Origin: Euprymna scolopes | Taxonomy: Eukaryota | Direction: 5' to 3' (one strand) | Assembly: GCA_053919585.1 (NCBI GenBank) | Contig: CM132828.1 | Length of the DNA stretch: 64,000 nt | In this document: positions 11,133-56,321 of the stretch, piece by piece | Layout of the letters: each line of letters begins with the position of its first letter | Position numbering within the stretch: the first letter of the stretch is position 1 | Made by a program: the position numbers and the translations under genes | The notes under the pieces: model-generated | Seen by the model: the letters and a program-made list of their open reading frames with translations, nothing else | Told to the model about the DNA's origin: nothing | The model's database searches: none

Positions 11133-11415
11133 GTATACAGCATAATTGCATTGACATACCGGTTCTCGTCAGATCACTGAAGTTAAGCAATGGCGAGCCT
11201 GGTTAGTACCAGATGGGTGATCATTTGGGAATAGGCAGTTTATGTGCTCTCCGCTTATCTTGGCATTTGTTTCTAGTCGTCTTGTATATTCACTTGCCAC
11301 TCGTATTTAACAATGTCGGCTCAGGAGAGTCAATAATAAGACTTTCCAATAAGACTTTCATGCGCAGGCACCCCTTCATGGGTAACCATAGTCTGTCAAA
11401 GACTGAGGGCGTCCT
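11133..11415 (+). mobile_element. 5S rRNA-derived SINE (SINE3-type) with 11-bp TSD
   Basis: 11133-11248 is a decayed 5S rRNA (CCGGTTCTCGTCAGATCACTGAAGTTAAGCAA...GGTTAGTAC...GATGGGTGA...TGGGAATA) fused to a ~165-bp non-5S body; TACATAGGTAT at 11122-11132 and 11416-11426. Confidence 0.85.
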
Positions 11416-17287: not shown

Positions 17288-20200
17288 CTAATAGAGTTAA
17301 TTAAAAAGGCACTAGTGGGGCGGTTATCAGGAGTAAGTGGTAGGTGGGTCTTAAATCTAAAATTAGAGGATTCTCTGTCAAGTATTCCAAGCACCTCGCA
17401 CTAGATAAGACCAAGACGAAGAAGCAGCTAGAGCAGAAATTAATCTGGCTACATGGGAGGGAAATAGGGTTTGTCAAGAACTAGCTAAGCAAGACCTTCT
17501 GCGGGAGACTAGTGAGCATTACGAAGGTCAAGTAGAGCTAGGCTTAGAAAGATAGGCAATGAAGCAGTGAACTCTGATGTGGATGTGCATCATGAGGTTT
17601 CTAGGCGTGGCTTGGACAAGTACATTGGTAAAGTCAAACATCTGAATGGATGCACCTTGGAGTTTACTCGAGAGATCTGCGAGGGGTTTCTAGAATATTT
17701 TGAAGAGCATTTTACGCAACATCCCGATCTTCCGATCAACGAGTTTAGTAACGATTTGGCCGACTCTCCCCATCTCGAGGCGTCTAGGGCGGCTAGTTGC
17801 GAGGGCCGGTTGACGTAGTGGGAGATTTTTATTGCGCTAAAGCAGATCAGCTATGACAGATCACCAGGACTTGATGGTTTGCCATACGAACTGTATTTGA
17901 GGCTGTTGCCCATGTTTCTACATCTTCTGACAGATGTGTTCAATCATTGGTTTTCTCAGGAATCCATCCTGGGGCAAGTCATCAAGGGAGTGATCACATT
18001 GCTCAGGAAAGGTGACGGTCATGGTGACGACGAATTAGATGACTACAGGCCCATAACTCTGCGTTTAGCAGAGTTGAAGATTTTGCCCAAGATCTTGTCG
18101 AATCAACTGCAAGTTGTTATTGGCGACTTGATCAAACCAAAACAAAATGACGCTGTGAAGAGGAGATCGATTCAGAACAATTTGCACCTGATCCGCATCA
18201 TCCTAGAGAAGGGATAGGAGATGACACAGAAGTCATGCTGATCAATTTAGATCATTCCAAAGCTTTTGATAGGGTCGGCCATCGCCTCCTGACATCTGTC
18301 TTAGATACTGCCAATTTTAAACTGGACTTCTGCAAGTTGATCTCTGAGATGTATTGCCATCCATGATTGTCGTGCAAGTCAACGGAAAGCACTCGAAACC
18401 CTTTATTATCTCTCAGGTGGTTCATCAGGGTTGTCTGCCGTCACCCCTACTCTACATCCTGGCGTTGGAGCCACTACTCTGCAAGCTAAGACGTGGAGAG
18501 GCAAATTCAGCCCTGCATGGAATAGCTCTACCTGGCGGCTTGGCCACCAAAGTATCCGTGTACACCGATGACGTCACGGTCTTTGTGTTGAGCTTCAGAG
18601 ACATTGAGATTATGTCGGAGGTGTTTGCTCGGTACGAAAGAATTACAGGAGCCAAAATAAACCGCAGCAAGTCGGTCGGACTGTGGTTGGGCACCTGGAG
18701 TGGTTACGCAAATCTACTGGCACCTTTCAGCTGGACAGATGGCCTGGTTTGGGTCCCTGGTGTGTGATTGGGACAGGGTCTCCAGCTCAAAAAGAATTGG
18801 TCGGAGGTATGGTCAAAGGTGGAGGCTGTAGTCAACTTGTGGCTTCCTAGGAAACTTTCCTTAAGAGCCAAGGTGTGCGCCATGTACGTCTTCCTCTAAT
18901 CCTTTACCGACTGGCCATACTTTTCCTGCCTGCACAACACCTAAAAGTTCTTGTCGAACTCTTGTCCTCGCTTCTTTAGAACAAAGGAAGACACTGGGTG
19001 AGCAGACAGGTCTGTATTTAATGTCCTTGTGAGGGAGGCATAGGAATGCCGGACTTGAAGTGTCATTGAGACGCTGAAAAGCTGATATTCCTGAGCCACT
19101 ATCTGCAAGAAGACTAACCATGGTACCCTGCTATTATTGCCGCCCATCCTGATCTTGTTCTTGACCTCTCTGTCGAGAGCCGTTGCAGGCCGCGGAGAGA
19201 ATCTGCCATCCTAAAAGAGTGTCAAGCCACACTAAAATGACTACCAAGGTCCAGCGACCTTAAGACTGCTGCCCATAGGGAACTCCACAGGGATCTAGTG
19301 AGAGGGGGGGGGCTCCCAACTATTCACTAAGCGTGCGTTTGGGTTGGCAGCAGAGTGAGATCCATTCTGTGTGGAGTTGGGCGTCAGATTCGAGTCATCG
19401 GAACAACTTGGAGTTCTCTCTGACCTGGCGATTGGCTCGAAATGCACTTCCTCCAAACAACGTACAATGCAGTTTTGGTTTTTTGGAGTCCTTGTTGCAG
19501 AACAACAGCCATAAAAACGACTGATCACGCTTTCTTTGATTGTCATAAACTCCACCAGTGCTGGTCATATGTTGTTAAAGTGACAGCTCACATTGATCCT
19601 AGGCATCCTTGCCCAATTACCGTATTCAATGTTGTTGACAACGTGAGGCTGGTGTGGTATCAGGAAACACAAATTGTCTACATTACTATTCTGACCGTAG
19701 CAAGAATGGTAATTTGGACGTCGCAACTGCAAGGTGGCCAGAGGGGGTATTGTCCTTTTTTGATCAGTATCTGATCGCTTTCTTTAAACACCAACTACGG
19801 GTGAAGATGAGATTTGATAGAAAGAGGCTGCATCACATGGAATTTGACAGAAGATGGATACACGTAGCAAGTCTGCGCGTGCGAAAACAAACCAAATGTG
19901 AATATGTGTTCCCCATCAAGTGTAATCTAACTTTTAGCCTCTTAGTTTGCCAAGTGAATGCTCCATTCCTTCTCAACTAGGTAGCCTCCAAGATCCTCAC
20001 CCCCTCCTAACTGCAAGTTTTCTTTTCACCCCTCCCTCTAAATTTCACTCATCTTGGAGAAAAAGAAATCTATCACTAACAACCCCTCTCACCCACCAGG
20101 TTTTCTTTTCTCCATTTCATCCCATCTAGAGAGCACCCCCATTTAGAGACTGTCCCACAGGACCTTTACAAACCGAAGTGGAACGGACGGTCTATCAACT

Positions 20201-20547
20201 AGACAAGGTTATGAGGGTCCTACTAACCACTTTAGTATTTTTCCTTCCCTTCCCTCGACACAAATGAATTATTGTATCATTATTGTTATCTTCTTTGTTA
20301 TTTATTACAAATCAATAAAAATCTTTTAAACAATTGAGTTCTAAGTAGGACGCCCCCAAGTACGAAAGGGTGAATGCAGTATTATGGTGAAAGAAGATTC
20401 TAGCTAAGAGAAACTTTTGTTTAGTTCTAGAGTGACAAGCATGACCAACGACCCTCATTTTCCCCCCTTTTGAGTTGGCCTTGTGTCTAAGTGTTTTTTC
20501 ATGTTGAATTACATTGTATTTTTAGCCCGAATAAAATATTTAATATC
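17288..20547 (+). mobile_element. Element A: 5'-truncated Tx1/L1-clade retrotransposon (decayed ORF2 RT + C-terminal zinc region, long type-I 3'UTR)
   Basis: SPGLDGLPYELY, YRPITL, QGCLPSPLLYILALEPL, YTDDV, HAFFDC; 3'UTR ends AATAAAATATTTAATATC just before the U2 motif. Confidence 0.88.
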
Positions 20548-20570
20548 TCAAAGTGTAGTATCTGTTCTTA
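20548..20570 (+). other. U2 snRNA-derived joint motif (branch-point recognition region), representative copy
   Basis: TCAAAGTGTAGTATCTGTTCTTA matches U2 nt ~27-49 as I recall it (UCAAAG form, as in Drosophila U2). Other copies: 24614-24636(-), 29057-29079(+), 32808-32830(-), 35013-35034(+), 40983-41001(+), 42556-42578(+), 48061-48078(-, decayed), 48790-48810(-), 49031-49051(-), 56301-56321(+). Confidence 0.88.
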
Positions 20571-22715
20571 CTACATTTTTTTCTTTGGCACGTGTCAATG
20601 CTGTTCTAGCAACACCTTCTTGTGCCATGAACACATTGATAAGCTTTTTGCGGTAGCGTTCTTTCCGCACCCCCACTTTGTCTTTCTTTGCTCTCTCTCC
20701 CTGCGAGAGGAGGATATGAGCTGTTAATTACGACCTTCCCACGAAGGAGAGTCGGACATTCTTTCCCTCTTGCCTTCAATTAATTCCCCACTCCCTCTCT
20801 CAGTTCTGTCTCCCCTCTTGCAGCTCTCCACTTTGGATGCCATCTCCATGTTGGTCAAAGCCGTGAATTTTGGATTTTATCGCACCCTTTGACTGACCAT
20901 GAAAACCACAGACACTGGAAGAGAGTAAAAGAAGGCAAACCCCAGCATGGAGTTCATGACTCCGCCAAAGGACAACACCCCATATGGGGGAGCAACATTT
21001 AAAAACAAACGAAGGGGCATACTGCCTTGATAATATGGAGGCAAGGGCAGCAGCCGCAAAAGACCGTGGCCGGGGGAAATGCTCCCCACTAGAGCAACTC
21101 CCCTAAAGAGGGAGCTAATTGCAAAACTGATGAGGCATACCCAAGAGGTCCTCCAAACCAACGGGTAGCAGACCCAAAAGATATTACTGGGGGAGAAGCT
21201 CCGCATAAGGGCAACTTCCCCCCAAAAGGAGAAAATTACAAAAAAAAAAAGGCATACCGCCTGGAAGTAAATGTTGGCAATGAGGCAGCTGCCTCAAGAG
21301 ACACAATGAAGGGGGATGCTTCTCCAGAGGGAAGCTTCCCGAAAAAGGGAGCCGTACTGGACACACTCAAGGAGAGCGCGGGAGAATGAGTCTCTAAAGG
21401 GAAACCCATCTCACAAAACACCTTCAAGACAGCAAAAAAAAATCATCCAACCCCACAAAAGACTCCATTACCCAAGTTGTCAGAATAGATCTGCATGGGG
21501 TAAAACTGCTGAAAACAGACTCTCTCTGCAGGAATATAAAGACTTGTACTTCACCAAGTACTAAAAATATATTGAGGGGAATGTCCTCCAGCCAATTCCT
21601 GGGGACTGGGAGGTAATAGAACACCAGGGAAAATCAGCTCAAGAGAGTGAAAAAGGAAGAAATGGCAAAGCTCCTCCAGAAATTGAATATACCCACCAAG
21701 TATATACACCAGAGGAGCTTTCTGATGTTGGACATACTGCTCCCAATAAGGATGAAGCAGAAAGGTTCTCACGCACAGAGCTTAAATGCACAGGAGTCCA
21801 CCAGCTGCTGGAGTACCAGGACAGGAGAAGAACCCAGGTACAAATATTTAATGCTCCTGCTTATCTACACGCAGAACTGATTGGAACCTTCTTCAGTAAG
21901 TTTGGAGAGATGGAGCAAATGAACCTGGCATACTTCAAAAATGGTGTCCACCTGGGAGGCTATACAGTAGCGATGCGGGTAAAAAGAAGAGGGCTTCTTA
22001 GGCATACTAGCAGCAATATCCTTCAAGAAAGCCAACATGATGGTGGTGGTCGAGGGTTAACACCCTCACTGCTGGTTCTGTCAGAAACAGGGCCACATAG
22101 CAAAGAACTGCCCAAAAAAAACATTTCCAAGCCAATCTGCACCACAAGTGAACACAGTTCCAGCAGCGGGGGTGTTGACAACCACTGAAACTATGAAATT
22201 TGCCAACATCAGCCCTTGAGTCAACAAAGCCCAAGGGAACCAAGGATCAGTGAAGTATGGTGGCAAGGCGTAAACGAAAGAACACATATCTCCACCTCAA
22301 CCTCACCACCTACTAAATAGCAGCAACAACAACAACAGTCGCAGCCACAATGACAACAGCAGCAGCAACAATATCAGCAGCAGCAGCGAGAGCAACAATG
22401 GCAACAGCAGCAGCAACAATATCAGCAGCAGCAGTGAGAGCAACAATGGCAACAGCAGCAGCAACAATATCAGCAGCAGCAGTGAGAGCAACAATGGCAA
22501 CAGCAGCAGCAACAATATCAGCAGCAGCAGTGAGAGCAACAATGGCAACAGCAGCAGCAACAATATCAGCAGCAGCAGTGAGAGCAACAATGGCAACAGC
22601 AGCAGCAACAATATCAGTAGCAGCAGTGAGAGCAACAATGGCAACAGCAGCAGCAGCAACCGAAGCAACAACAGCTGTTGCAGCTGAAGCCTTGAAAACA
22701 GCTGCAACAACAACC
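20571..22715 (+). mobile_element. Element B: Tx1-like structured 5'UTR + decayed type-I ORF1
   Basis: ATG at 20899; CCHC knuckle CWFCQKQGHIAKNC at 22070-22111; ends in CAG/CAA-rich repeats. Confidence 0.8.
22350..22650 (+). repeat. 48-bp tandem repeat (~6 copies) in ORF1 tail
   Basis: Unit GCAACAATGGCAACAGCAGCAGCAACAATATCAGCAGCAGCAGTGAGA. Confidence 0.92.
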
Positions 22716-24613
22716 ACTTTGCTGTTTTGGCTTTGGCTGCTGCTATTTTTGCTGCTAAATGATTGTTGTTGCAGCTGTTTTCGTGGCTTTGGCTGAGGCA
22801 GCTATTTTTTTTGCTTCAGCATCTTCAGCTGCTGCTGCTATGGCTGTGGTTTTGGCTGCAGATGCTGTGGAGGCTGCTGTTGTTGTTGCTGCCTTGATTG
22901 TTGGGTTGGTGGTTTGACGTTTGCGGATGGGGTTGTAGGCTTCCGTTTCTGGCTCGTCACCATGCTCCTTTCCTCTCCCTTAACCTCCTGTGATGTTCTG
23001 AATTCACTCGACATTGGGGTTGGTGCTGCGGTTGTAGGAGTGGTGACAGCTTTATTTGATTCTGGTGCTGTCTTGGGGGTTGGGACTGCCTTTGGTGTCA
23101 CTTGAGTCGGGATTGATTTTTTGTGGCAGCTTTGGCCATGTGACTCTGCTTGTGGCAGAACAGCAGTGCGGATGGCAGCCTTCCACCACTACCATCATGC
23201 TGGTGCCCTTGAAGGTCAGCAGTGCTGCTATCACCAGAAATACCTTTCTCTTCAGCCTCATTACCACTGTGTAGCAGCTCAGGTGTATGCTGGTTTTCTA
23301 TTGTACCGGGGCCACCTGCTCCACCTCTACAAATTGGCTGAAGAGGGGGATCCCAGGAGTTCTGATGGTATTTGAGTTGGTATGTTGAATATCTGCACCT
23401 GACTACTTCTTGACCTGGTATTCTGGCATTAATTTGGCTCCTCCATGCTTTATTTCTTTGAGGAAGAGTCTCTCCGCATCCTCCTTGGTGGGTAGGAGGA
23501 TGTTTGACATGACAAAGCTTCTCTGGTACATGCATAGTGTTGGAAAGTTCAATTTGTGAAGGAGCCCCACTATGTCTTCTTTTCCGTCCCTAGGAGACGG
23601 TTTTCTGGTATGTTGGAGGTAACAAAGGACAGGACTCTATCCTCGTCTGGCCCTGGCTTTATTATGTATTGCCTGTACTTGGTAAAGTACAGGTCTTTGT
23701 ACTCTTGAGGGGACAGTTGCTTTTCTGTGGTCTTTCCCCATGCAGACTCTCTTGTTGGTGTTGGTGTTGGTGTTGGATCTGTGGTGGGGCTGGATCGTTC
23801 TTGGGGTTCTTTTTTGGAGGGCATTCCCCTTTCTGCTTTCTTTGGGGACCGACTCTCCTTGGTTGATGTTTCTTCCGGAAACAGCTTCCGTTTTGAGGGA
23901 GTTGGTTTCTTGGGAAGCGTTGCCCTCTTTATTGTCCTTGAGGGCATCTGCCCCTTCATTGTTGTTGAGGTCCAGGTGGTATGCCCCCTCGTTCTTCTGA
24001 TTTGCGCCTCCCAAAAGGACTGCACTTTGGGGCTAGTGCCTCTTTACTGCACTTTGGGGCTAGTGCCTCTTCCTTTGTGTGGTTAGAATGGGATGCCCCG
24101 TTCGACATTGGTTTTTCTCCCCGTTGTTTGGTAGTGTTTTTGCTCCTCCTGGTGGGTAGTTGTATTCTAGAGGAGCAGCTGCTTCTGTGGTGGCCTCCAG
24201 GCTGGAGGTATCCATAGTAGCGACCACCGGGCTGAGGTTGTCTGTCTGAAACTCTTCGGTTCGTGTTCGTCTCAAATGTCGCAAAAACAAGTGATGTGAG
24301 GATAGTGTCAGTAGTGCTGAGTCAAATTTGGTGCCAAAAAGAAGTAGCGCCAAAAGTGATAAAAGGGGAGATAGACCTGAGAGAGGAAGTTGGGAGTTAA
24401 TTGAAGGGCAGAGAGAAAGTGTGTTAGACCCTCCTTCACGGAAAGGTTGGAATTAACAGGTCAGATCCCCCCTCGCAGGGGGAGAGCAGAAAAAGTTAGA
24501 CAAAGTGGGGGTTGCGGACAGAACGCTACTCCAAAAAAGCATGTCACTGTGTTCCGGGCATAAGAATATGTTGCCAGAACAGCACTGCCTTGCGCAAAAG
24601 AAAAAAAATGTAA
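22716..24613 (-). mobile_element. Element C: Tx1-like 5'UTR + decayed type-II ORF1
   Basis: ATG at 24215 (MDTSSLEA), SAWGK..LSPQEYKDLYFTKY block, knuckle remnant ~23125-23170; same leader as B. Confidence 0.8.
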
Positions 24614-24636
24614 TAAGAACAGATACTACACATTGA

Positions 24637-29056: not shown

Positions 29057-29079
29057 TCAAAGTGTTGTATCTGTTCTTA

Positions 29080-30960
29080 CCACATTTTTTTCCTTCGCAC
29101 AGGGCAATGCTGTTCTGGCGACACATTCTCATGCCTGGAACACACACTCAAGCTTTTTTGGGGTAGCGCCCTGTCCACACCCCTCACTTTGTGTATCTTT
29201 CTCTGCTCTCTCCCTGTGAGGGGGGATCTAAGCTGTTAATTACAACCTTCTCACGAGGAAGGGTCGGATACACTTTCTTTCTTCCCTCTAATTAACTGCC
29301 CAGTTCCTCTCTCAGTTCCATCTCCTCTCTTATCGCTTTTGACGCCACTTCTTTTTGGTGCCAAATTCAGCTCCCCAGTACATTTTTGCGACATTCGAGA
29401 TAGAAACCAACCTAAGAGAGTTTCAAACAAACACCTTCAGCCTAGGAGCTGCCACTATGGATACCCCTAGTCCGAGGGCCACCACAGAAGCAGCTGGTTC
29501 CCCAGAGGACAACTCTCCATCAGGAGAAGAAAAAACACCAACAAATAACAAATCCTCATTAATGGACATACCCCTGAAGGGGGAAAACGTACCAGCAGAT
29601 CCTCATGGGGCGCCTCTCCCAAAGGGGAGAAAAATCAATGTCGAACGGGAAATCCCACTCATGCCACAAAAAATTAAAGAGACACTAACCCCAAAGGACA
29701 ATAAAGATGGCAGTGCTTCCCAGGAAGGCTGCTCCCCCAAAAGGGAAGCAAATCAGAAGATCAAGTGGGTATACCAACTGGACCCACCAACAATGAAAGC
29801 GCAGATGCCCTCAAGGACAATAAAGAGGACGACGCTTCCCAAGAAGCCGACTCTCCCAAAATGGAAGCTGTTCCCGGAAGAAACTTTAACCAAGGAGAGT
29901 CAGTCCCAAAAGAAAGCAGAAAGGGGGATGCCCCCCAAGAAAGCAACACTCCCACAAAAGGATTGCATACGGACTACGGGTAGGCAGGAAGCATCGCAAA
30001 AAAACAGACAGATGCAACCGCCATTAAATAATCTCAAAAACGATCCAACACCACGAAAGAACCAACACCAACACCAACAAGAGGGTCTGCATGGGGAAAG
30101 ACAGCAAAAAACAAATGTCTCCTCAAGAGTACATAGACGTGTACCTGAGGAGCTTTGCCATGTGGGACATCTTCCTACCCACCAAGGAGGATGTGGAGAG
30201 TCTCTCCCTCAAAGAAATGAAGCATGGGAGAGTCAAATAAATGCTGGAATATCAGGCCAAGACAAGGAGTTAGGTGCAGATATTCAATGTTATAACTCAA
30301 ATACCTGCTGAACTCCTGGGATCCCTCTTCCGTCAGTTCAGAGAGATGGAACAAATGACCTCAGTATGGTCAAAAAATCGGCATACACCTGGGCGACTAC
30401 ACAATGGCAATGAGGCTGAAGAGAGAGGGATTCCTGCCGATACCAGTGCTGCTGACCTTCAAGGTCACCAGCATAATGGTAGTGGTGGAGCGCCATCATC
30501 TGCAACCCTGCTGGTTCTGCCACCAGCAGGGTTACATTGCCAAGAGCTACCCTAAAATTCAACCCCAACTCGAGTAACACAAAAAGCAGTCCCAACCCTC
30601 TAGACAACACCAGAGTACAATCAAGCTGTCACCACCTCTACAACCACGGCACCAACCCCAGCGTCGAGAGAATCTAGAAACACGGAGGCCAAGGGGAAGG
30701 AATGGAGCATGGTGACGGGCCGGAAATGGAAGCCCACAATCTCATTCACAACCATCACACCGCCAACCAACAATCAAGGCAGCAACAACAACAGCAGCCT
30801 CCACAGCAGCCCCAGCCACAGTAGTAGGTGGAGCAGCAGCTGTTAACGCCGCAGAAGCAGCTGCAGCAAAACCAACATCTGTCATAGCCGAAGCTGCGGA
30901 AGCAACTGCAACAATAACAAACGCTTCAGCAGCCAAAACAGCAGCCGAGGCAGCAGCAGC
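29080..30960 (+). mobile_element. Element F: 5'UTR + type-II ORF1
   Basis: ATG 29457 (MDTPSPRA); knuckle CWFCHQQGYIAKS ~30510-30548; homologous to C. Confidence 0.8.
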
Positions 30961-32807
30961 AAAGTGGATGTTGTTGCAGCTGTTCTTGTTGCTTTGGCGG
31001 CTATTGTTGCTGCTTCTCTTGTTGCTGCTGCTGATATTATTTCTGCTGCTGTTGCCGTTGCAGCTGCGACTGTTGTTGTTGCTGCTGAGTAGGTCGTACG
31101 GTTGAGGTGGAGATATATGTGTTCACCACTGTCCTCCACTGATCTTTGGTTTATGCCCTGCCACTGTACTCCACTGCTCTGTGGTCTCATTGGGCTTTGT
31201 TGACTCAAGGGCTGATGTTGGCAATTCCTTAGTTTCAGTGGCTGTCGCCACCCCCGTTGCTGGAACTGTGTTTACTTGTGGTGCAGGTTGGCTTGGAACC
31301 CCTTATTTGGTCAGTTCTTTGCTATGTGGCTCTGTTTCTCACAGAACCAGCAGTGAGGGCATCGACCCTCGACCACCATCATCATTTTGGCTTTCTTGAA
31401 GGATATTGCTGCTGGTATGCCTAAGAAACCCTCTTTTTTTACCCACATCGCTACTGTATAGTTTCCCAGGTGGACACCATTTTTGGAGCATGCCAGGTCT
31501 ATCTGCGTCACCTGTCTTAACTTAGCGAAGAAGTTTTCCAGCAGTTCTATGTGTAGATCGGCAGACTCATTAAATATTTGTACCCGGATTCCTCTCCTGC
31601 TCTGATACTCTGGCAAGAACTTGACTTCTGCGCATTTAAGCTCCGTGCGTGAGAACCTTTCTGCTTCATCCTTGTTCAGTAGTAGTATGTACCACATTGC
31701 AAAGCTCCTCAGATGTATATACTTGGTGGGTGTATTCAGTTTCTGGATGTGCTCAGCCATTTCTTCCTTTTTCGTTGCCTCGAGCCAATTTTCCCTGATG
31801 TCTGAAGTGATGAAGGACAGAACCTTGTCCTCCATCACCTCCCCGTCCCTAGATATTGGCTTGAGGATGATCTAAATATATTCCTTATACTTGGTGAGGT
31901 ACAAGTCTTTATATTACTGCAGAGTCTCTTTTCAGTGGTTTTACCTCATGCAGATCCATTTGATGGCTTGAGCAAGGGGTCTTTTGTGGCGTTGTATGAT
32001 TGCTTTGCTGTCTTGGAGGTGTTTCGTGAGACAGGTTTCCCTTTAGAGGCTGATTCTCCTGCGCCCTACTTGAGTGTGTCCAGTATTGCTCCCTTTTTTG
32101 GGGAGCTTCCCTCTGGGCGAACATCTTCCTCCATCATCTCTTGAGGCAGCTGCCTCCTTGCCAGCATTCAATTCCATGCGGTATGCCTCTTCTGTTTGGT
32201 AGTTTTTTTTCTTTTTGGAGGAAACTGCATTCGCAGGGAACTTCTTCCCCGGTAATGTCTTTTGGGGCTGCTGCCCCTTGGCTTAAAGGACCTCTTGGGT
32301 GTGCCTCCTTAGTTTTGCAATTAACTCCCTCTTAAGGGGAGCTGCCTCCGTAGGGAGCATCTCCCTGGGCACAGTTTTTTGGGGATGCCTTTGCCTCCAT
32401 GGTATCCGGGCAGTACCCCCCTTCCTTTTTAAGTGTGACTCCTCCATTTAAGGAGTCGTCTTTTGGGAGTGTCATCATCTCCATGATGGGGATTATCTAT
32501 TTGTTCTCTCTTCCAGTTTCTGCGGTCTCGATGGTCAGTCAAAGGGTACAGTAAAATCCAAAATTCACTGTTTTGACTGACGTGGAGACAAACAGAGGAG
32601 TCGACTTTGGCGCCAAAAAAAAAGTGTCGTCAAAGGCGGCAAGAGGGGAGACAGAATTGAGAGAAGGAGTGGGGAGTTAGTCTGAGGGATGAAAAAAAGT
32701 GTGTCCAACCCTCCCTTGCGGGAAGGTCGTAATAACAGCTCAGATAAAAAAAAAAGCTTGACATGTCTCCTGAACTACACTGTCCTGCGTGAAGGAAAAA
32801 AATTTAC
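30961..32807 (-). mobile_element. Element G: 5'UTR + type-I ORF1
   Basis: ORF 31311-31838 ends CPHCWFCEKQSHIAKN; homologous to B. Confidence 0.8.
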
Positions 32808-32830
32808 TAAGAACAGATACTACACTTTGA

Positions 32831-35012: not shown

Positions 35013-35034
35013 CAAAGTGTAGTATCTGTTCTTA

Positions 35035-38000
35035 CATTTTTTTCTCTTCTGTGAGGCAGTGCTGTTCTGGCGATACACTCTCATGCTTGGAAAACACTGA
35101 CAAGCTTTTGTTTTTTTGTGGGGTAGTGTTCTGTCTGCATCCTCCAATTTGTCTACCTTTCTCTGCTCTCCTCCAGCGAGGGGATATCCGAGCTGATAAT
35201 TCCGACCTTCCTGCGAGGGAGGGTCAGAAAAACTTTCTCTCTTCTCTTCAATTAACTCCCCACTCTCTTTATCAGTCCTATTCTCCCTTTCACGCCACTC
35301 TTTTTAGCGCAAAAGTCGGCTCCCCACTTCAGACGGCGTCATCATGTCAGTCAAAACCATGATTTTGAACTTTACTTCTACCCCCCCCCCCCTCTTTTGA
35401 CTGACCATGGAGATTGCAGACGCCCAAAGAGAGGGACCAGCGACACCCCACAGCACAGAAAAGACCGCTCCCCCAAAGGACGACTTTCCAAATGGGGGAG
35501 TAACACCAAAAAATCAAGAGGCATACAGTCTGAAAAACATAATGGCAGGAACAGCAGCTCTAAAAGATTGTACCCCACAAGGGCAGCTCCCCTAAAAATG
35601 GAGACAACACAAAATCTGAGGCATCTGACCATACGGGACCTCCAAACCAAAAGGGCAGCAGGTTCAAAAGACATTTGCCAGGGAGATGCTACCCACAAAG
35701 ACGGCTCTTCAAAAAAGGGAGCTAAACAACTAATTGAGGAGGCAGACTGCCTGGAATCATCTGGAAAAACCACAGTAGTCCCAAAAGACTTTACCAGGTA
35801 CAAAGCCTTCCCAGGAGAGTAGCTCCCCTAAAGAGGGAGGTTAATCCCAAATTGATGGGATGTACCGCCTGAAGTCACAAAATAAGTGGGCAGCAACCCT
35901 ATTAGACCTGACCAATAGAGAGGCGCCCCAAAAAGGAGGCTCCCCAAAAAGGGAGACAAAACAAAGCCCAACCCCACAAAGGACACTGCCAACCCACCAC
36001 CACCAGCAAATTCAGCATGGGAAAGGACCTCGAACTCAAAACTGACCCTGGAAGATTACAGGTCTCTCTACCTTACCAAATACAGGCAGTACATTGAGGG
36101 AAATGTGCTCCAACAAACACCAGCATCATAGTAGGCAATTGCAGACAGGGTTCTGTTGTTTACAACATCAAACTTCCAAGCAAATTGCCTCTTCGGAACA
36201 GATAAACAAGAGATGGCGGAGCTCTTACAGAAGCTCAACATCTCGGCAACCTTCTTTTGCCGAAGGAGCTTCGCTATGTGGGACGTCCTCTTCCCCAACA
36301 AAGAGATGGTAGAGGAGCTTACCCAAAAAGAACTGAAGAGTGGCAGCGTGGATCTGTTCCCTGAGTACCAAAGGAAGCAAAAGACCCGGGTCCACATTTA
36401 AAACACGCCCTCTGAATTCTGTGCTGAAATAATTAGGTGTCTTCTTCAGCGAGTTCGCGGAGGTGGAACAAGTGGACCTGTTAAGGTCTTGAAATGGCAG
36501 CCATAACTCTGACTATGTGGTGTCATTGAGGCTAAAGAAAGAGGACTTTCTGGCAATTCCAGTGGTGCTATGTCACCATAACTGGAACATGACAATCATT
36601 GTGGAAGGCTGCCATCCATACTGCTTGTTTTGCCAAAAACAAGGACACCTGGTTAAAGAATGCGCTAAGAAACTTGCTGCCAGCCAGCCATCAGCAAAAG
36701 CCGCCTTGAAACCAGCCCAAGAAGATTGGCTAAATCCCCGGAGATAATGAAGGAAGGTTGGAGCACATTGGTGAGTCACAGGAGGAAACTACAGCCACCC
36801 CTGTCGTGGTCCAACACCTGCTCCAAAGCAGCAGCAGCGGCCATAACAACGAAAAGTGGCGGAGCAGCAGCAGCCACAAGCACAGCCGTAGCCAAAACAG
36901 CAGCGGCAGGCAAAGTAGCAGTAGCAAGTGAAGTAGCAGCAGCAGCCAAAGCAGCAACAGCAGAGCAATCAGGACTTCAGTCCCAACCAAACAGGGGACA
37001 AAGAGGAAAACTAAAAACGCTTCTGATGAAGAGGAAGCAGAGAACGAGAGAGAGACTATTGCTACCTCACCCCTCACGGGTCCTACAAAAAAACAACAAA
37101 AAAGAGTAAAGAATGAGGGTGAGGAAGTGGTCATTGCCCCTATAAACATACGCTATCCCAAACACTCAATACTGGCACAAAACACACACCACCAATGCTC
37201 ACTTCCAGAACAATGACACATGCACACACACTACAAGCTCTGCTCCCACCACCAGCACCGGTCACCAAACCCACCCCCATACATGCCAAACACTGGCAGA
37301 AGATAAATTTTAAGCCATTGCTGGACTGCCGACAGATAGGAGAAAAAGACATTGAATTCCTCAACAACTTCCCAGATACCACCCTTGTAACAGTTTTCAT
37401 CAGGTCGCCCGCTGGTTGCAAAACTCCGGTTTGGTAGATGGTGGAAGCTGCCATTGAGGCAATCCCAGGAACCAAATTAGTTAGACTGTGACCCTTCCCT
37501 AGAAGAGCTTTAAACCTAATGTAAGGGAAGGGTTCCAATCCTGGTACGCCCATCACTATACCAGGCCTTAAAACTAACATACCCCTTGGACATTGACGGC
37601 TTGCGCGATGCAGTCAAATTACCAAGGAACTGATCACCCAAGCATTGCGCACTGCGTTAGTGTCCTCTCTCTGGAGGACTTTTGAACCGTGGGCGACACT
37701 GAATTGGAAAGTAACCAACCATAGCTCTTTACTTGGCAAGTTTGAATGCGAGGGGCTTGAGGTTCTCAGACCAGGAGGCTCGTGTCCTGAGAGACCTTCT
37801 GTCCCTGGGAGTGGATGTGGCTGCACTACATTAGAGGCACACTTCATTTTGTCCATGGATTCTCAGGTGCTGTCGAGAGATTACAATGTGTTTTAGTATA
37901 TGTGAACCCATGGCGAAATCATGTGTCCCTGCTGGTGAAATGCACCATCTCTGATGGTAAACGTTGTTCATAGGAACAATGCGGGGAGGCTAGTTGTGGC

Positions 38001-40982: not shown

Positions 40983-41001
40983 TCAAAGTGTAATATCTGT
41001 T

Positions 41002-42555
41002 ATAAGTACATTTTTCCTTTGCGCAAGTGGCACATTGTCATGCCCAGAACACACTGACAAGCCTTTTTAAGGTAGCCTTCTGTCTGCACCCCCCAAGTTT
41101 GTCTATCTTTCTCTGCTCTCCCTTCGCCAGGGGGGATCTGAACTGTTAATTACGACCTTCCTTCGAGGGAGGGTCGGACACATTTTCTCTCTTCCCGCCA
41201 ATTAACTCCCCATTCCCTCTCTCAGTTCTATGCCCTCTTCTTGCTGCCTTTGGCACAATTTCCTTTTTGGCGAGAAAGTCAGCTCTCCACTTTGGATGCC
41301 GTCTCCACGTCAGTCAAGACTGTGATTTTGGGATTTTACTGTACCTTTGACTGGCCATGGCGACTGAAGACACTGGAAGAGAGAAAAAGGAGACAACCCC
41401 CAGCGCGGAGATGATGACTCTCCCAAAGGACAACTCCCCAAATTGTGGAGCAACACTTAAAAATGAAGAGGCGTACCACCCAAATAACATGGCGGCAGGG
41501 GCAGCAGCCTCAAAAGACTGTGCGCGGGAGATGCTTCCCATAAGAGCAGTTTCCCGAAAAAGGGAACTAATTGCAAAACAGGAGGAGCACACCCAAGAAG
41601 TCCTCCAAACCAAGGGGCAGCAGCCCCAAAAGATATTACCAGGGAAGAAGCTTCCCGCGAGGGCATCTTCCCCTTAACAGAAGAAAATGACTAAAAAGAA
41701 GAGGCATACCACCTGGAAATGAAATGAATGCAAGGAAGCAGCTGCCTCAATAGACATGATGAAGGGGGATGCTTCTCCAGAGGGAAGCTCCCTGAAAAAG
41801 GGAGCAGTACTGGACACTCAAGAAGAGCACGGGAGACTCAGCCCCTACAGACACCATGTATATACACCAGAGGAGCTTCGCAATGTGGGACATACTGTTC
41901 TTCAACAAGGGTGAAGCAGAAAGGTTCTCACACAGAGAGCTTTTATGCACAGGAGTCAAGCGGCTGCCGGACTACCAGGGTAGGAGAAGAACCCGGGTAC
42001 AAATATTTAATGCTCCTTCCGATCTATGCACAGAACTACTGGGAGCCTTCCTCAGTAAGTTTGGAGAGGTGGAGCAGATGGACCCGGCATGGTGTCAACC
42101 TGGGAAGCTATACAGTAGCGATGCAGGTGAAAAGAGAGGACTTCTTAGGCATACCAGCAGCAATATCCTTAAAGGAAGCCAAAATGATGATGGTGGTCGA
42201 GAGTCGATGCCCTCATTGTTGGTTCTGTCAGAAACAGCTGGATGGCAAAGAACTGCCTCCCAAGCCAACTTGCACCACAAGTAAACACAGTTCCAGCAGC
42301 GGGTGTGGTGACAGCCACTGAAACTTAGGAATCACCAGCATCAGCCCTTGAGTCAACAAAATGCAAGGAGACCAAGGATAAGTGGAGTATGGGGGCAGGG
42401 CGTAAACGGAAGAACACATCTATCTCCAAAAAAATAGAAAAATAGGAAAAAGACAAGCCTTTTTCCTTTCTTGACCTTTGGACAAGATTGTGGATTTTTT
42501 GTTCTCCTTTTATCCATGTTATATTTTTATTAACCTGAATAAAAGATTTAATACC
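41002..42555 (+). mobile_element. Element K: ORF1-only (type I) derivative with short 3' tail
   Basis: ATG 41357 (MATEDTGREKK), CPHCWFCQKQ; ~130-bp tail with AATAAA, then the U2 motif. Confidence 0.78.
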
Positions 42556-42578
42556 TCAAAGTGTATTATCTGTTCTTA

Positions 42579-45213
42579 CTAACTTTTTTTCTTTCTCACA
42601 AGGCAGTGCTATTTTGGTGACACATTCTCATGCCTATAACACACTGACAAGTTTTGGTTCTATTTTGAGTTAGCATTCTATCTGCAACTCCCACACTGTC
42701 TATCAGTCTCTGCTCTCCTCATTATGAAGGGAGATCTGAGCTGTTAATTATGAGGGAGGGTCGGACACACTTTCTCTCTTCCCTTCAATTAACTCCACAC
42801 TCCCTCTCTCAGTTCTATCTCCCCTCTTGCCATCATTGCTATCACTTTTTTTGGTGCCAAATTCAGCTCCCCACTACGGATGCTGTCTCCACGTTACTCA
42901 TTTTACTGACAGTCGTGATGGAAATCAACTGAAAGTGTCAAATCCTTGGGGGCCACCACTATGGATACCCCAGCCCGGGGGCCACCACAGAAACAATTGC
43001 TCCCTCAGAAGACGACTCCCCATCAGGAGGAGCAAAAACACCAATACACAATAGAGTGTACCACCCAGACAAAGAATTAATAAGGGGCGTTCTCCTGAAG
43101 AGGGGAAATCTACCAGCAGCACTCCATGAGGACAACTCCTCTCCAAAGGGGAGACAAACCAATGCCGGATGGAGCATCTTGCTCATGCAATAACATGGAA
43201 GAGACACTAGCCCCAAAGGACAATAAAGAGAACAGTGCACTGCAGGAGGATTGCTCCCCCAACGAGGAGCAAATCAAGAGAATGAGGTGGCATACCGCAT
43301 GGACCTCATAAACAAGGAAGAGGCAGATGCCCCCAAGGACAATAAAGGGGACAACGCTTGCCAATAGGCCGACTCCCCCAAAATGGAAGCTGTTTCCAGA
43401 AGTTACATCAACAAACTAAACTGTGTTTTGGGTGATTACAGTTCATGCACCCAGCATTGATCGCAAGAGGGTTTCATTCTTTGGTCAGCTCGGCGCGTTC
43501 ATAGAATGTCGGAAGCGAGTAGTGCTGATGAGGGAATGAAATGCCATCTTATACACCGAGATAGATAAGGTAGGATGCAAAACTAAAGGGTCAGAGAAGT
43601 GCGAGTCGAGCCTGGCTGATCTGATCACTAGATGCGGTTTGGTCAACAGGTTTCGGGCTGAGCGGGAGATGAGGAAGTTGACCAATAATGTTTTCTCCTA
43701 TCCAAATACCTATTTGTACAGGATGTTTGCTAGGAAAGCTGACATAGACTTCTTATCTTGTCCCACGTTCACTTGGCTAGGCCAGACACACCATAGACTA
43801 GTTATGGCCCAGGTGAAGTTAGGAAATAGGCCTGAGTTAGCAGGGTACTGGAAGTTTAACACCTCCCTTCTGGAGATACAAGATGTTTGAGATAAATTAA
43901 TAGAGTTAATTCAAAAGACACTAGTGGGAGCAATTATCAAGAGTAAGTGGTGGGTGGGTCTTAAAGCTAAAATTAGAAAATTCTCCATCAAGTATGCCCA
44001 GCGCCTCACACTAGATAAAACCAAGACGAAGAAGCAGCTAAAGCAGAAATTAGCCTGGGCTATGGGGGAGGGCAATAGGGTTAGTCAGATCTTCTGCACA
44101 AGACTAGCAAGCATTAGAAAGATCAAGTAATTAGAGAAAGGCTTATAAAGATAGAAACCGAAGAAATCAACTCTGATGCGGACGTGTGTCACAAGGTGTC
44201 TAGGTGTGGCTCTGACAAGTATATTGACAAAGAAAAATATCTGGATGGACGCACATTAGAGTCGACTTGGGGGACTTGCAAGGAGCATTTTATGCAGCAG
44301 CCCAATCTTCTGGTCAACGAGTTTAGTGACTATTTAGCTAGTTGTAAGGGCCAGGTGATGGAGCAGGATATTTTTACTGCGCTGAAACAGGTCAGCTGTT
44401 ACAGATGGCCGGGACTCAATGGCCTTCCATACAAATTCTATTTGAGGCTGTCGCCTATTTTTCTGCCTCTTCTGATGGGAGTGTTCAACCATTGATTTTG
44501 AGGCAAGTCACCAGGCAAAGGAGTGATCACTTTGCTGAGGAAAGGTGACAGGCATGGCAGAGAAGAATTAGATGACTACAGGCCCATAACTCTGCTAAAC
44601 ACAGAGTTGAGGATTTGGGCCAAGGTCTTCTCGAATCGACTGCAGGTTGTTATCAGCGACTTAATCGAATTGGAGCAAAACTACACTGTGAAGGGAAAAT
44701 AAATTCAGAACAACTTGCACGATCCTGAAGGAAGGGATAAAAGATTGCATGGAAGCTGTGCTGATCAATTTAAACTAGTTCAAAGCTTTCAGTAGGATTG
44801 ACCATGGTTTTTCTGGCATCTGTCTTAGAGGCTACTGGTTTTAAACCAGACTTCTGCAAGTGGATATCCATGATGTATCGATAACCCACGGCTGTCGGAC
44901 GATTCAACAAAAAGCACTCAAAACCCTTTGTTATCTTTCTTACTCGGTTCAACAGGGTTGTCAGCTGCTGCCTCTGCTTTATGTCCTGGCTTTGGAACTT
45001 CTGCTCTGCATGCTGAAACGTAGGAAGGAACATTCGACCCTTCATGGAACAGCTGTGCCTGGCGGCTTGGCCACCAGAGTGTCCGCGATGATGTCACGGT
45101 CTTTGTGTCAAGCTTTTGAGACATTGAGATCATATCACAGGCTCTCAGTTGGTATGAAAGAATCATAGGGGCCAAGATAAACCGCAGCAAGTCGGTCGGA
45201 CTGTGGTTAAGCG
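42579..45213 (+). mobile_element. Element L: 5'UTR, type-II ORF1 start, deletion, ORF2 APE/RT
   Basis: ATG 42961; GYWKFNTSLL, PGLNGLPYKFY, YRPITLLNTE, QQGCQLLPLLY. Confidence 0.8.
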
Positions 45214-48060
45214 CCTATGCTGAGTAAACATCAAACCTATTTACCAGCACCTGACAATCCCCGTCCAAAATAAAGTGGGTCTCCTGAACGATATCTACCT
45301 GGAGAGACACCAGATCTCTCAGCACATGCATGGCTTTGATCAACAGATTTAAACAGTGACACACATGGGACTGAAGTCCCTGGGAGTGAGGACATGGCAG
45401 TCCTGTCCAAGACTGCCTAAAAGCATCCCCCATCCAAGACAAATGTTATCTTGAGTGTCCTGTAAAACGAAAGGTAAACATAAAGAGGAACCCTACCTTT
45501 GCATCACACTGCCAGCTGCTTCAGTGATGAATGCTCATCGTCCACCAGCTGCTGGTTCGGGAATGCCTTCTTACCCTCCTCCACCATGCTTCATAGGGCT
45601 CTGGTTCGGTTGTCCATTTGTCCTCTCACAAATGTGGTCAGCATTGGAACGTCCTTGAACTTTGTGGGGTCCGTCATGCTGTCCCCCTAGACATAAACAA
45701 AGTTTCTTAGTTTGTTGTAAGATGCCTCCTGCTTACCCTTAAAGTCTAGGTAGGCTTGCAGAGGGTCAGTCTCACACTTGTCTCCAGGCTGGAATGGAAG
45801 TTTCTTTGTCCGTTCACTACTGATTGGAGGGACGGGTTTAGGTTTTCCAGGCTCTCCTCTCGCTTTTTGTCAGGAGGCCTATCCTTGGAAGAAGTGTGTG
45901 AAGCGTTTTTTTTTTTTTTGGGGGGGGGGGGTTGTAGGAGGTGGGTAGTCTTCTCAGCTTGAGAGGTGTTTGGGAGCTGAGGTTTTTCCTCCTTCGAAGT
46001 CTTTTCGAAGGGGGTGGGCTGGGAGCTGCCTCCCTGCTCTTCTTATACTTCTTCCTCCCGGTCTTTTCTTTGTTCTCCACCCGAGCCGAGCTATCAATCT
46101 AAACCTCTCCCTCAGATACTGCTTCTTCTTCCGACTCAGGTGGGAAGTCCGGAAGCTTCCATTTGCCCCTATTGTTGGTGTGGCGTCCTCCGTATTCATG
46201 GGTTCACTAGTGCTGGGAGCCTCTTGCTGTTGCTGCCGTTGCTGAAGTTTTTTCTGCTGTTTCTGCTGCTGTTGTTGTTACTGCTGTCATTGCAGCTGCC
46301 GCTGTTGTTGCCAGTGCTGCTGTTGAGTAGGTGATGAGGTTGCAGCAGAGATGAGGGCATTCTTCTGTTTAATCCTCGCTACCATACTCCACTGACTTTT
46401 TGTCACTTCACTGGACTTTATCGATTCTGGGGCTGGAGTCTGTGACTCCTTAACTTCAATAGTGATGGTTGTTGCTGATGCTGTGTTCACTTGTGGTGCT
46501 GGTTAGCTTGGAGCCGTTTTTTTTGGGCAGTTCTTTGCCATGTGGTCCTGTTTCTGACAGAACCAACAATGAGGGTGTTGACCCTCAACAACTTGCTGGT
46601 AGGAAGCCCTCTCTTTTCAACCTTATTGCAACTGTGTAGCTACTCAAGTGAACATCGTTCTGTTTTTGGAGTGTTCGGGTCCACCTACCCCATTTCCCCA
46701 AACTGGCTAAGGAAAGACCTCAATAGTTCTGGAGTATTGAAAATCTGTACTCAGGTTCTCCTCCAACCTGGTACTCCGGCAGCAGCTTGATTCCTCCGCA
46801 TTTAAGCTCCCTGTGTGAGAATTTTTCAACATCGTCTTTGTTAGGGAGCAGTATGTTCCACATTGAAAAGCTCTTCTGATGTATGTACTTGGCAGGTGCA
46901 TTCAGCTGAAAGAGCTCTGCTATCTTCTGCTTTTTCAGACCCCTGAGACTGTTTTCCCAGAGGTCGGAAGTGACAAAAGACAGGATCTTGTCCTTTATCG
47001 CCTCCCGATCTTCTGGTATAAACTTGTGGACGTTCCCCTGAGTATAATCCTTGTACTTTGTAAGGTACAAGTCCTTGTAATCCTGTGGGGAGAGTCTCTT
47101 TTTAATGGTCTTATCCCACGCCCATCCCTCTGATGGCTTGGGGTGAGGGGCTCTTTTGTGGATTTGTTTACTCTCTTGGAGGGTTTTTTGTGAGTCGGAT
47201 TTCAATTTACAGGCCGATTCTTGCATGCTTTCTTTTGATGTGTGCAGGACAGCTCCTTTTTTCAGGCAGCTTCCTTCTGGGGAAGCGTCCCCCCTTAATA
47301 GTGTCTCTGTAGGCAGCTGACTCTGCCAGTGTTTGTTTTCAGGTGGTATGCCTCTTTTCCTGGGAGTTTTCTCCCTTTTTGGGGCAGTTACTCTTTTCGG
47401 ATCTTCTTCCCCGGCAATGTCTTTTAGGGCTGCTGCCTCTTGGTTTCGAAGATCTGTTTGGTGTGCCTCTCGTTTCTGCAGTTTGCCTCCTCCTTAAGGG
47501 AACTGCTCTCATGTGGAGCATCTCCTATGGCCAAGGTCTTTTGTAGCGGTTGCTCCTATCTCTATCTAATCTGGGCGGTACACCCCTTCGTTTTTTGTGT
47601 TGTTCTCCCATTTGGGGAGTCATCCTTTGAGGAAGTCGTCTCTTCTGTGCTGGAGAATGTTGCTGGCATTTCTCTTCTGCCATCTGCAGTCTCCATGGTC
47701 GGTCAAAGGGCAGGTAGAGATAAAGTCCAAAATCACGGTTTTGACTGACGTGGAGACAACGTACAAAGTGGGGAGCCGATTTTGCGCAAAAAAAAAAAAA
47801 AGTGATGCCACAGGTGGCAAGAGGAGGAGATAGAACTGAGAGAGGGAGTGGAGGAAAAAGAGTAAGTCTGTCCGACCCGCCCTCGTGGGAAGGTCGTGGT
47901 TATTACCTTAGATCCTCCCCAGCTCAAAGGGAAAGCAGTGAAGGATAGACAAAGTGGAGGTTGCGGAGAGAATGCTAACCCAAAAAAGCTTGTTAATGTG
48001 TTCCACGTATGAGAATGTGTCGCCAGAAGAGCACTGCCTCACACGAAAGAAAAAATGTAG
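45214..48060 (-). mobile_element. Element M: 5'UTR, ORF1 and ORF2 APE start
   Basis: ATG 47696; LSPQDYKDLYLTKY; APE VDIVQETHF at 45215-45442; leader homologous to B and J. Confidence 0.8.
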
Positions 48061-48270
48061 TAAGAACAGACAGTACACGTAAAGACTACAATTTGTATTA
48101 TTAATGTTATCAATTTTGTCGCAGCTTTCTTTTTTAGATTTAATAAAAAATATCGCTGCATTAAGCGTCCTAAATTATGAGATGAGAAAATGAACAAATC
48201 TCTTTGTAAAAGAGAGTTATCTCCCTTTTCACAGTGAATGATTGTAAAACTGTGCCAACTTAATTTCACA

Positions 48271-55580: not shown

Positions 55581-56321
55581 TACTTGCCAAGTATATACAC
55601 GAGAGGAGCTTTGCGATGTGGGACATACTGTTTCCCAATAATGACAAAGCAAAACGGTTCTCATGCAGAGAGCTTAAATGTGCAAGATTCAACCTACTGC
55701 AGGAGCACCAGGGTTAGAGGAGAACCCGGGTACAAATATTTAATGCTCCTGCTGATCTACACACAAAACCACTGGGAGCCTTGCTCAGTAAGTTTGGAGA
55801 AGTAGAGCAGATGGACCTGGCATGCTCCAAAAACGATGTCCACCTGTCAAGCTATACAGTAGCAATGCAGGTGAAAAGAGAGGGCTTCCTAGGCATACCA
55901 GCAGCAATAGCCTTCAAGGAAGCCAAAATGGTGGTCGAGAGTCAACGCCCTCACAGCTCGTTTTGTTAGAAACCGGGCTACATGCCAAAGAACTGCCTCA
56001 AAAAAGCGGTTCTAAGCCAATTTGTACCACAAGTAAACACAGTTCCAGCAGCGGGGTGGCGACAGCCATTCAAACTAAGGGATCATCTTCAGCCCTTGAG
56101 TCGACAAAATGCAAGGAGACCAAGGATTAGTGGAGTAGTTGCAGGACGTAAACGGAAGAACACATCTATCTCCAAAAAAATAAGAAAAAGGCAAGCCTTT
56201 TTTCTTTCTTGATCTTTGGGACAAGATTGTGCATAAATTTTTTGTTCTCTTTTAGTTTAAGTTGTATTTTTATTAACCTGGATAAAAGATTTAATACCTT
56301 AAAGTGTAGTATCTGTTCTTA

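Follow-up and report, generated by a model that had tools for sequence, protein, structure and literature searches.

The 64,000-nt stretch of Euprymna scolopes DNA analysed here (contig CM132828.1, assembly GCA_053919585.1; hereafter the window) contains, from about position 20571, a multi-hairpin leader of ~300 nt which a sequence-only reading had described as a repeat standing in front of different types of open reading frame 1 (ORF1). That the leader occurs in multiple copies was confirmed by self-comparison of the window, which revealed nine of them, one (32827-) internally deleted; across the genome the copies number in the hundreds. Every copy in the window is preceded by nt ~27-47 of the U2 small nuclear RNA (snRNA), a fragment identical to the genome's own U2 genes (loci L001-L012). 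A 20-nt block of U2 matched the window 11 times at no more than 3 mismatches, compared with no match in 100 shuffles; two of the 11 precede a different leader, and the blocks in front of the leaders lie at 20551+, 24633-, 29060+, 32827-, 35015+, 40986+, 42559+, 48080- and 56302+. Judged by its sequence, the window is a decayed, rearranged pile of elements of the type of family A (the family of the leader studied; A1-A3 are its young subfamilies, A3 being the youngest). At its start the element is antisense to U2 nt 30-45, the U2 arm with which intron branch points pair; such complementarity was observed in five families here and in one distant long interspersed nuclear element (LINE).

The leader is the 5' untranslated region (UTR) of a ~7.1-kb LINE of the Keno kind, which encodes an apurinic-like endonuclease (APE) and a reverse transcriptase (RT) and inserts into U2 snRNA sequence; the assignment to Keno is based on domains, ORF layout and target site. 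Across 20 stretches of 10 kb, elements of 6.7-7.4 kb begin with the leader, with a second U2 fragment at most 3' ends, and the young full-length elements measure 7.0-7.2 kb, with the leader at the start and the second U2 fragment at the end. Each element has two ORFs, the APE domain being located in ORF2. In L061, ORF2 matched Exo_endo_phos (E 9e-12), RVT_1 (E 5e-30) and zf-RVT (E 6e-7); the ORF2 endonuclease also matched human L1 ORF2p chains (E 3e-10), and ORF1 carries a zf-CCHC knuckle scoring below the Pfam cut-off. The nearest named homologue was from Argonauta (120 homologues were listed, none carrying an element name). The cephalopod relatives P0001-P0091 show RT identities of about 54-76%.

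In the copy studied, the nick is inferred between 20560 and 20561 (U2 nt 39/40), so that a Keno-type 3' target would start at 20561; the element itself starts at ~20569, and the shared core extends to ~20852. The ends of the short family B mostly abut TCTGTTC directly (most of the top rows among 100 ends), and in a survey of 3' ends families A and D were found to reach it through a U2-like 3' tail of their own. The Keno 3' target begins with this heptamer in the cited passage of PMC6136364. The tails of A and D carry U2 nt ~23/27-39, i.e. the U2 bases upstream of the nick, as does the 3' end of the element immediately upstream of the leader studied (17289..20560; U2 nt ~27-39). Each insertion thus rebuilds the target, and arrays grow. 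Head-to-tail arrays with periods of 7,126 and ~7,625 bp were found, with AATAAA immediately upstream of each junction, and exact patterns detected at least 1,202 and at least 4,310 junctions in the genome. Subfamily A3, which has intact ORFs and forms tandem arrays, is present in at least 211 copies by exact pattern. Downstream of one 7,127-bp copy come U2 nt 28-196 and a flank 98% identical to a U2 locus; this insertion in a real U2 gene was one of two pattern matches, and its upstream side is not the native U2 5' end.

The cited passages on the Keno group (KenoDr1, KenoFr1, Keno-1_SSa, Tx1 group; PMC4640811, PMC4494074, PMC6136364) describe elements which, like the present ones, combine an APE endonuclease with an RT, have two ORFs and target U2 snRNA with a 3' flank starting at TCTGTTC. 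In contrast to these, nearly all copies found here sit in dispersed U2 5' fragments and tandem arrays instead of U2 genes, families A and D rebuild the target through their own 3' end, and cephalopods are not among the hosts given in those passages. Utopia, a LINE with a restriction-like endonuclease and generally one ORF, uses the same U2 site (PMC4640811, whose supplementary files show 3' junctions and U2 genes). In the parts of that paper cited here it resembles the present elements in the 3' target position, in occasional tandem insertion and in the loss of the U2 5' part upstream in some cases, as at L242. Membership in Utopia was ruled out by the APE domain and the two ORFs.

The complementarity between the start of the element and the branch-point-recognition sequence directly upstream, which the sequence-only reading did not include, comprises the first 8-16 nt, and the resulting junction hairpin (H0) is predicted in both the minimum free energy (MFE) and the centroid structure of the window copy. 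For a survey of this fold-back, 168 junctions were grouped by family and the first 22 nt scored against U2 nt 27-45. The median duplex energies were -9.9 (A, n=58), -17.9 (C, 25), -17.2 (B, 23), -9.1 (G, 18) and -8.7 (D, 5), compared with -3 to -5 for downstream control windows. The first window was the best U2 partner in 18/23 junctions of family B, 23/25 of C, 5/5 of D and 15/18 of G. Common B and C starts pair over 13-16 nt, and all six of their distinct departures from perfect pairing are G-U. With the D starts included (see below), six of eight departures are compatible with G-U pairing, which corresponds to p ~0.02 if a third of changes are compatible (a hand calculation, in which the events are not independent); the tally leaves aside metagenome U2 genes also caught. 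Five of the six G-U departures are A-to-G changes, which can also be produced by RNA editing of the hairpin, and RNA editing is heavy in cephalopods. On either view the two strands have to pair at the RNA level. The junction also occurs in a minimal, satellite-like version at L178:1015-1530, where the U2 head and the antisense start make up a 73-bp tandem repeat.

A scan of metagenome contigs by pattern yielded at least 122 stretches, of which 119 junctions were scored; 3 fell below -9 kcal/mol and 116 above. The strongest among the matches listed, L309 (contig Ga0056133_10033944, 672-2829), is a distant Keno-like LINE behind native U2 nt 1-45, with a 10-bp fold-back, two CCHC knuckles in ORF1 and an APE ORF2 (30% identity). 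It is without the long leader, its ORF1 ATG lying within ~50 nt; the fold-back thus recurs where the leader does not. The metagenome loci were otherwise almost all native U2 genes of other eukaryotes (tblastn on 79 loci gave one match), and an endonuclease search in viral contigs found nothing. In the literature searched, no mention of a hairpin or an antisense start was found for Keno or Utopia, including the cited passages of PMC4640811, PMC4494074 and PMC6136364; a description of Keno 5' ends may exist in Kojima and Fujiwara (2004) or in Repbase.

The leader is covered by contigs of four RNA runs, and single contigs join the upstream 3' end or the U2 fragment with the leader. Letters of the youngest subfamily dominate (311/477, 394/641 and all depth in two further runs). 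Over the whole element the RNA runs gave long near-identical contigs, whereas the DNA runs gave thousands of divergent pieces; runs X19 and X20 had near-identical contigs and were not taken as independent. The junction-crossing contigs fit the earlier suggestion that the leader is expressed from co-transcripts, and they fit transcription of young copies through the junction, as far as contigs alone, with no start, strand or cut visible, can indicate. In run X13 one contig joins L231 794 to 3367 (leader end to just before ORF2), which removes ORF1, with 29 letters on the short side. Splicing was rejected for this joint, which has no GT donor and probably represents an ORF1-less deletion copy.

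Several observations weigh against a general fold-back. Only 20/58 junctions of family A had the first window as best partner (median shuffle p 0.06), a low proportion caused by other leader sites that also pair with the U2 fragment. Family D starts have two true mismatches and young A starts a bulge. With E- and F-type starts the first window was never the best partner and no fold-back was found; family E (90-500-nt U2-site units at L057, L058, L071, L074 and L088-L091), whose starts are not antisense, serves as natural control and counter-example alike. Some of the junctions sampled, above all those of G, came from a pattern that selects antisense starts, and the support from outside this genome is one locus, L309. 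The RNA evidence consists of contigs, which could include carried-over DNA. Finally, the fold-back could be a by-product of integration (snap-back or twin priming).

The remainder of the leader had been proposed to contain four hairpins, H1-H4. All four are present in the family majority sequence, which adds a fifth (H5), absent from the copy at 20571; compared with the quoted strings, single window copies show 0-7 changed letters, and some of them have no match to several helices even when 7 changes are allowed. Folding z-scores were -5.2 for the window copy and, for a young copy, -9.2 (+ strand) and -5.5 (- strand). In a scan of an intact element (12 shuffles per window) the two leader windows had z -3.4 and -8.8, and 13 others ranged from +2.0 to -6.6; since other parts of the element reach -6.6, the leader is stable yet not unique in fold strength. 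Three double changes at 42667-42690 had been read as compensatory. One of them is a real subfamily-level G-C to U-A swap in H2, a single evolutionary event (U-A in 12, G-C in 7 and other combinations in 6 of 25 old copies). The second has its A-U form in 1 of 32 rows, and the third falls on two CpGs, where decay alone yields A-U. Mutation rates were 0.28-0.30 at CpG sites, 0.15 at other G/C and 0.07 at A/T, and the fast CpG decay produces false A-U pairs in stems. With 58 hand-set pairs in 32 copies the covariation score was 0.115, compared with 0.114 for shuffled data (175/500) and so not above background, decayed copies giving the comparison little power. An RNAalifold consensus of the 32 copies (17 pairs in three helices, -8.6 kcal/mol) was set aside because decayed copies break pairs.

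The helix GTTAATT/AATTAAC, said to enclose H4, is broken in young subfamilies. As to the two GNRA loops, that of H4 is present in the family consensus, whereas the H3 loop is not GNRA in young subfamilies. In A3, whose ORFs are intact and which is represented in RNA, the 3' arm of H1 is lost. A module H2-H3-H4 is common to the family D LINE, whose ORF2 is 66% identical; there the H4 homologue has kept the GNRA loop, and of its changed pairs one is compensatory, one is consistent and one is broken. The ~750-nt leader of family D has repeated hairpins, including a second H2-H3-like module upstream, and B-type 5' parts replace the D start in several loci. In H3 an A stands before a U-led pyrimidine bulge, followed by G-A-G paired with C-U-C. 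The bulge has 3 nt in family A and in module 2 of D and 2 nt in module 1 of D, and in 87 pattern-selected leaders the three bases after the A were TCC (47), TCT (35), TTC (4) and TCG (1). The residues named in the cited part of PMC6189040 for the arginine-sandwich bulge of HIV TAR and 7SK are thus present in H3 as a sequence pattern; in contrast to TAR and 7SK, the strand order is permuted (bulge on the 3' arm), and the motif is short enough for a chance match. The shared core ends just past a CCACGTCA box. We take this box to resemble ATF/CREB-type sites.

The leader had also been thought to be more conserved than the ORF1 parts that it precedes. This is borne out in young full-length elements, but compared with ORF2 or the 3' end the leader shows no higher conservation. 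Among 12 young elements compared with L061, identity was 0.90-0.99 in the leader and mostly 0.94-0.98 in windows from the RT to the 3' end (lower, 0.80-0.94, in L050); in ORF1 it was 0.51-0.63 in two elements of type X and 0.72-0.81 in most others, while two elements with the ORF1 type of L061 showed 0.96-0.98 throughout. For an older element the leader gave 0.84-0.87, and ORF2 with the 3' end 0.76-0.88; for the window copy the values were 78% for the leader and 81% for the upstream ORF2. The proteins of ORF1 types X and Y are 47% identical. ORF1 is an exchanged module, and the leader evolves together with ORF2 and the 3' end. The leader is common to different ORF1 types because ORF1 is the part that is swapped, and since the leader tracks ORF2 and the 3' end, the argument from conservation to leader function fails. 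Exchange of ORF1 is reported for Jockey-superfamily LINEs (PMC4120745).

Taking these data together, our favoured reading, held with somewhat better than even confidence, is that the leader is the 5' UTR of a Keno-like LINE at the U2 site and serves as a 5' control module without catalytic activity; its first bases are predicted to pair with, and thereby mask, the branch-point-recognition sequence of the U2 fragment directly upstream. Transcription would start upstream, either within the U2 head or through read-through of the preceding unit, and the RNA would not be cut between the U2 fragment and the leader. H0 would then form in the chimeric RNA and hide the branch-point arm of U2, which may keep the truncated U2 head, which lacks an Sm site, from working as U2 or being treated as such. 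The remaining leader (H2-H5, the pyrimidine tract and the CCACGTCA box) may serve transcription and translation of the element in a lineage-specific manner, by analogy with other LINE 5' UTRs; it is probably an ordinary control region of this lineage, including promoter elements.

A broader proposal is tentative, and we think it less likely to be right than wrong. U2-targeting LINEs across animals and their short parasites may have evolved an anti-U2 start as a decoy branch site that locks up the branch-point arm of the U2 head, so that a fragment poisonous to the spliceosome is disarmed or the RNA is anchored at the target. Here a U2-headed short interspersed nuclear element (SINE) would scatter targets and the LINEs would rebuild them at their 3' ends, and the TAR-like bulged hairpin may recruit an arginine-rich partner, either from elongation or from ORF1.

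Rather unlikely, in our estimate, is that the leader works at the DNA level as an internal promoter of RNA polymerase II, its hairpins being by-products, H0 among them (by snap-back or twin priming at integration, followed by drift). Most copies lie far from U2 promoters, the single insertion in a real U2 gene, without a native U2 5' end, standing against the thousands of junctions counted above, and the end of the shared core just past the CCACGTCA box, the non-significant covariation and the youth of A3 despite its loss of the H1 3' arm all agree with a promoter. The observed/expected ratio (o/e) of CpG points in the same direction, being 0.8 in the leader and 0.37-0.51 in ORF1, but it is equally high in ORF2 (0.68-1.18). 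Weighing against it are the mostly G-U-compatible departures in H0, the one compensatory pair held by each of H2 and H4, and the recurrence of H0 in the distant LINE L309. For H2-H5 this alternative is compatible with the masking module that we favour, and the two differ mainly on H0.

A functional structured RNA, suggested earlier in the form of an internal ribosome entry site (IRES), a processing or packaging signal or a ribozyme, was upheld to the extent that the element has a structured 5' leader. Searches of Rfam with the window (gathering thresholds) and with six loci and two young leaders (E<=10) gave only 5S, U2 and chance-level matches and no ribozyme or IRES family; this includes hammerhead, twister and the other Rfam ribozymes, no separate descriptor for twister variants having been run. 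A descriptor for ribozymes like that of hepatitis delta virus (HDV) matched 4/58 copies in sense orientation, compared with 2/58 shuffled; the 33/58 antisense matches mostly re-use the H4 arms, without the P1.1 GG, and are artefacts. Loose core words of the hammerhead were present in 5/58 copies only, with no convincing core. A self-cleaving leader, in which a ribozyme of unrecognised fold would release unit-length RNA from co-transcripts that are tandem or start with a U2 head, in the manner of the HDV-like ribozymes of R2 and L1Tc, is improbable, although the head-to-tail arrays, the strong folding of the leader and the module common to family D would suit it. In the cited passages, R2 and L1Tc/ingi likewise keep a structured 5' end across otherwise different elements, their 5' module being an HDV-like ribozyme and in L1Tc also an internal promoter (PMC4758252), and R2 ribozymes can cut in the upstream target sequence, which R2 RNA can also retain (PMC3774820). 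Here, in contrast, no HDV-like fold was found, the pairing with the target is a simple short-loop hairpin, and the RNA contigs are uncut across the junction between U2 and leader. The lack of such a leader in L309 and the loss of the H1 3' arm and of one GNRA loop in A3 weaken the need for a structured leader of this kind. The start of the leader was also considered as a 3' splice site (branch point, polypyrimidine tract and AG); old A, C and some D starts fit, young A1-A3 and B starts do not, and this was not favoured.

Slightly less probable still is that the antisense start acts in trans or on DNA, pairing in the course of target-primed reverse transcription to the top strand (nt 30-45) displaced at the U2 target, or else to nascent U2 RNA, and thereby helps to hold the element RNA's 5' end at the site. 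The complementarity spans the inferred nick at nt 39/40 and is strongest in the short non-autonomous families, which must compete for the machinery. A hairpin in cis would, however, outcompete such pairing if the U2 head is on the same RNA, family E uses the same site without complementarity, and 5'-truncated copies without the start also sit behind U2 heads. Least probable of all is an IRES or other translation element for ORF1 where inner units are part of a polycistronic transcript of the array: ORF1 is preceded by stable hairpins and pyrimidine tracts, no ATG comes before the ORF1 start in the open frame of A3, and RNA contigs cross a unit junction, but no IRES family of Rfam was matched, the AATAAA before each junction means that inner units need not share one RNA, and the structure varies between active subfamilies.

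The other families at the U2 site differ in size and organization. Family B consists of ~180-250-nt non-autonomous tandem units with hairpins of their own and a strong anti-U2 start (window 48788-48807 (-) and 49029-49048 (-); L252, L251, L236). Family D (L228, L229) is a second young LINE of ~7.6 kb with intact ORFs, present in at least 1,020 copies. Members of family C have ~160 nt and stand behind a head derived from U2 (L249:7638-7800, L256 rc 7894, L251, L161, L113 and many other loci). Target-site duplications (TSDs) of 7-14 bp flank its head and body together in L256, L251, L161 and L113, and of six arrays two had clear TSDs, one weak and three not evident. Family C looks like a SINEU-type element which seeds U2 targets that the LINEs fill. 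SINEU and the U2-headed Tx1-Mar of crocodilians are, in the cited passages of PMC4494074, short U2-headed elements sharing sites with Tx1-type LINEs; the difference is that here the U2 head is the LINE's own target, so that the short element seeds new sites. SINEU groups have a poly(A) tail there, whereas none was seen in family C.

The U2 heads have themselves evolved, with stem I variants that have a C-UUCG-G loop or fully paired stems (L215, L217, L225, L188, L019, L055); among 43 young 5' junctions classed, 19 had variant heads (one a misclassified B end) and none was native-like. Double heads at L226 and L237 suggest that the RNA sometimes introduces a head of its own. These two loci and L242 would agree with a U2 head on every LINE RNA, but this was rejected, since heads also precede 5'-truncated stubs and TSDs flank the head together with element C; most heads are therefore likely pre-existing targets. 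A second U2 variant forms a 764-bp tandem array of more than 35 copies at L010-L012 (contig C9).

The features of the window are collected in Table 1. The breakpoints of the pile (window ~21690, 39310, 41850, 51840 and 55580) recur at a similar place in ORF1 type X (element ~1170-1190 or 1525), as at a possible hot spot of recombination or insertion. Amid the U2-site elements, 52600-55581 (+) holds an unrelated, near-full ORF2 with endonuclease and RT from another, presumably CR1-like, kind of LINE, with a short poly(A) and 28% identity to the family A ORF2; similar insertions are present in L044 and L051. The window also contains a 5S rRNA-like copy at 11141-11245 (+) (48 bits) and tandem arrays with units of 51 bp (57971-64000) and 100 bp (945-2240).

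Table 1. Features assigned in the window around the leader studied and at its other copies
Feature	Position	Strand	Basis or remark
Decayed ORF2 (RT) plus 3' end, belonging to the upstream element (same family)	17289..20560	+	79-81% identity to young full-length elements over 3.3 kb
RVT_1 match in upstream ORF2	18348-18764	+	E 3e-9
U2 snRNA fragment, nt 27-47, with branch-point-recognition sequence	20548..20568	+	Identity to L001-L012
H0, predicted 11-bp fold-back (20550-20560 with 20569-20579)	20550..20579	+	MFE and centroid
H1, predicted hairpin	20596..20638	+	3' arm deleted in A3
H2, predicted hairpin	20650..20673	+	One subfamily-level G-C/U-A swap
H3, hairpin with U-led 3-nt bulge in family consensus, decayed in this copy	20690..20721	+	Common to sister family D
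H4, hairpin, GNRA loop in family consensus	20731..20754	+	Homologue in family D
Pyrimidine tract and end of shared core	20760..20852	+	H5 deleted here; consensus CCACGTCA box decayed here
Decayed ORF1 type X (CCHC knuckle type), then short-unit repeat and inversion	20899..22493	+	73% identity to L046 ORF1 region; translations
U2 fragment and leader copy	24280..24633	-	
U2 fragment and leader copy	29060..29400	+	
U2 fragment and leader copy, deleted from H1 3' arm to H3	32590..32827	-	
U2 fragment and leader copy	35015..35370	+	
U2 fragment and leader copy	40986..41340	+	
Leader copy, U-A form of H2, H4 5' arm deleted; preceded by U2-like head and ~70-nt element 3' end	42559..42910	+	
U2 fragment and leader copy	47730..48080	-	
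Leader copy, U-A form of H2, H4 5' arm deleted	56302..56660	+	

The literature passages cited leave two questions open, namely the transcription of LINEs that target snRNA genes and the way in which such LINEs spare splicing; the transcription of SINEU is called an open question in the cited part of PMC4494074. For such questions the genome of E. scolopes offers intact, very young copies represented in RNA as well as thousands of junctions, and it displays the exchange of ORF1 under a fixed 5' UTR and ORF2 and the apparent seeding of targets by a U2-headed short element. The 300-nt multi-hairpin leader as such appears to be an ordinary, lineage-specific LINE 5' UTR; the part worth following is the fold-back on U2. 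The rule proposed is an element start antisense to the arm with which U2 reads the branch points of introns. Should this rule hold for the named Keno and Utopia elements, it would be a general design feature of U2-targeting elements, with a bearing on their use as site-specific insertion tools.

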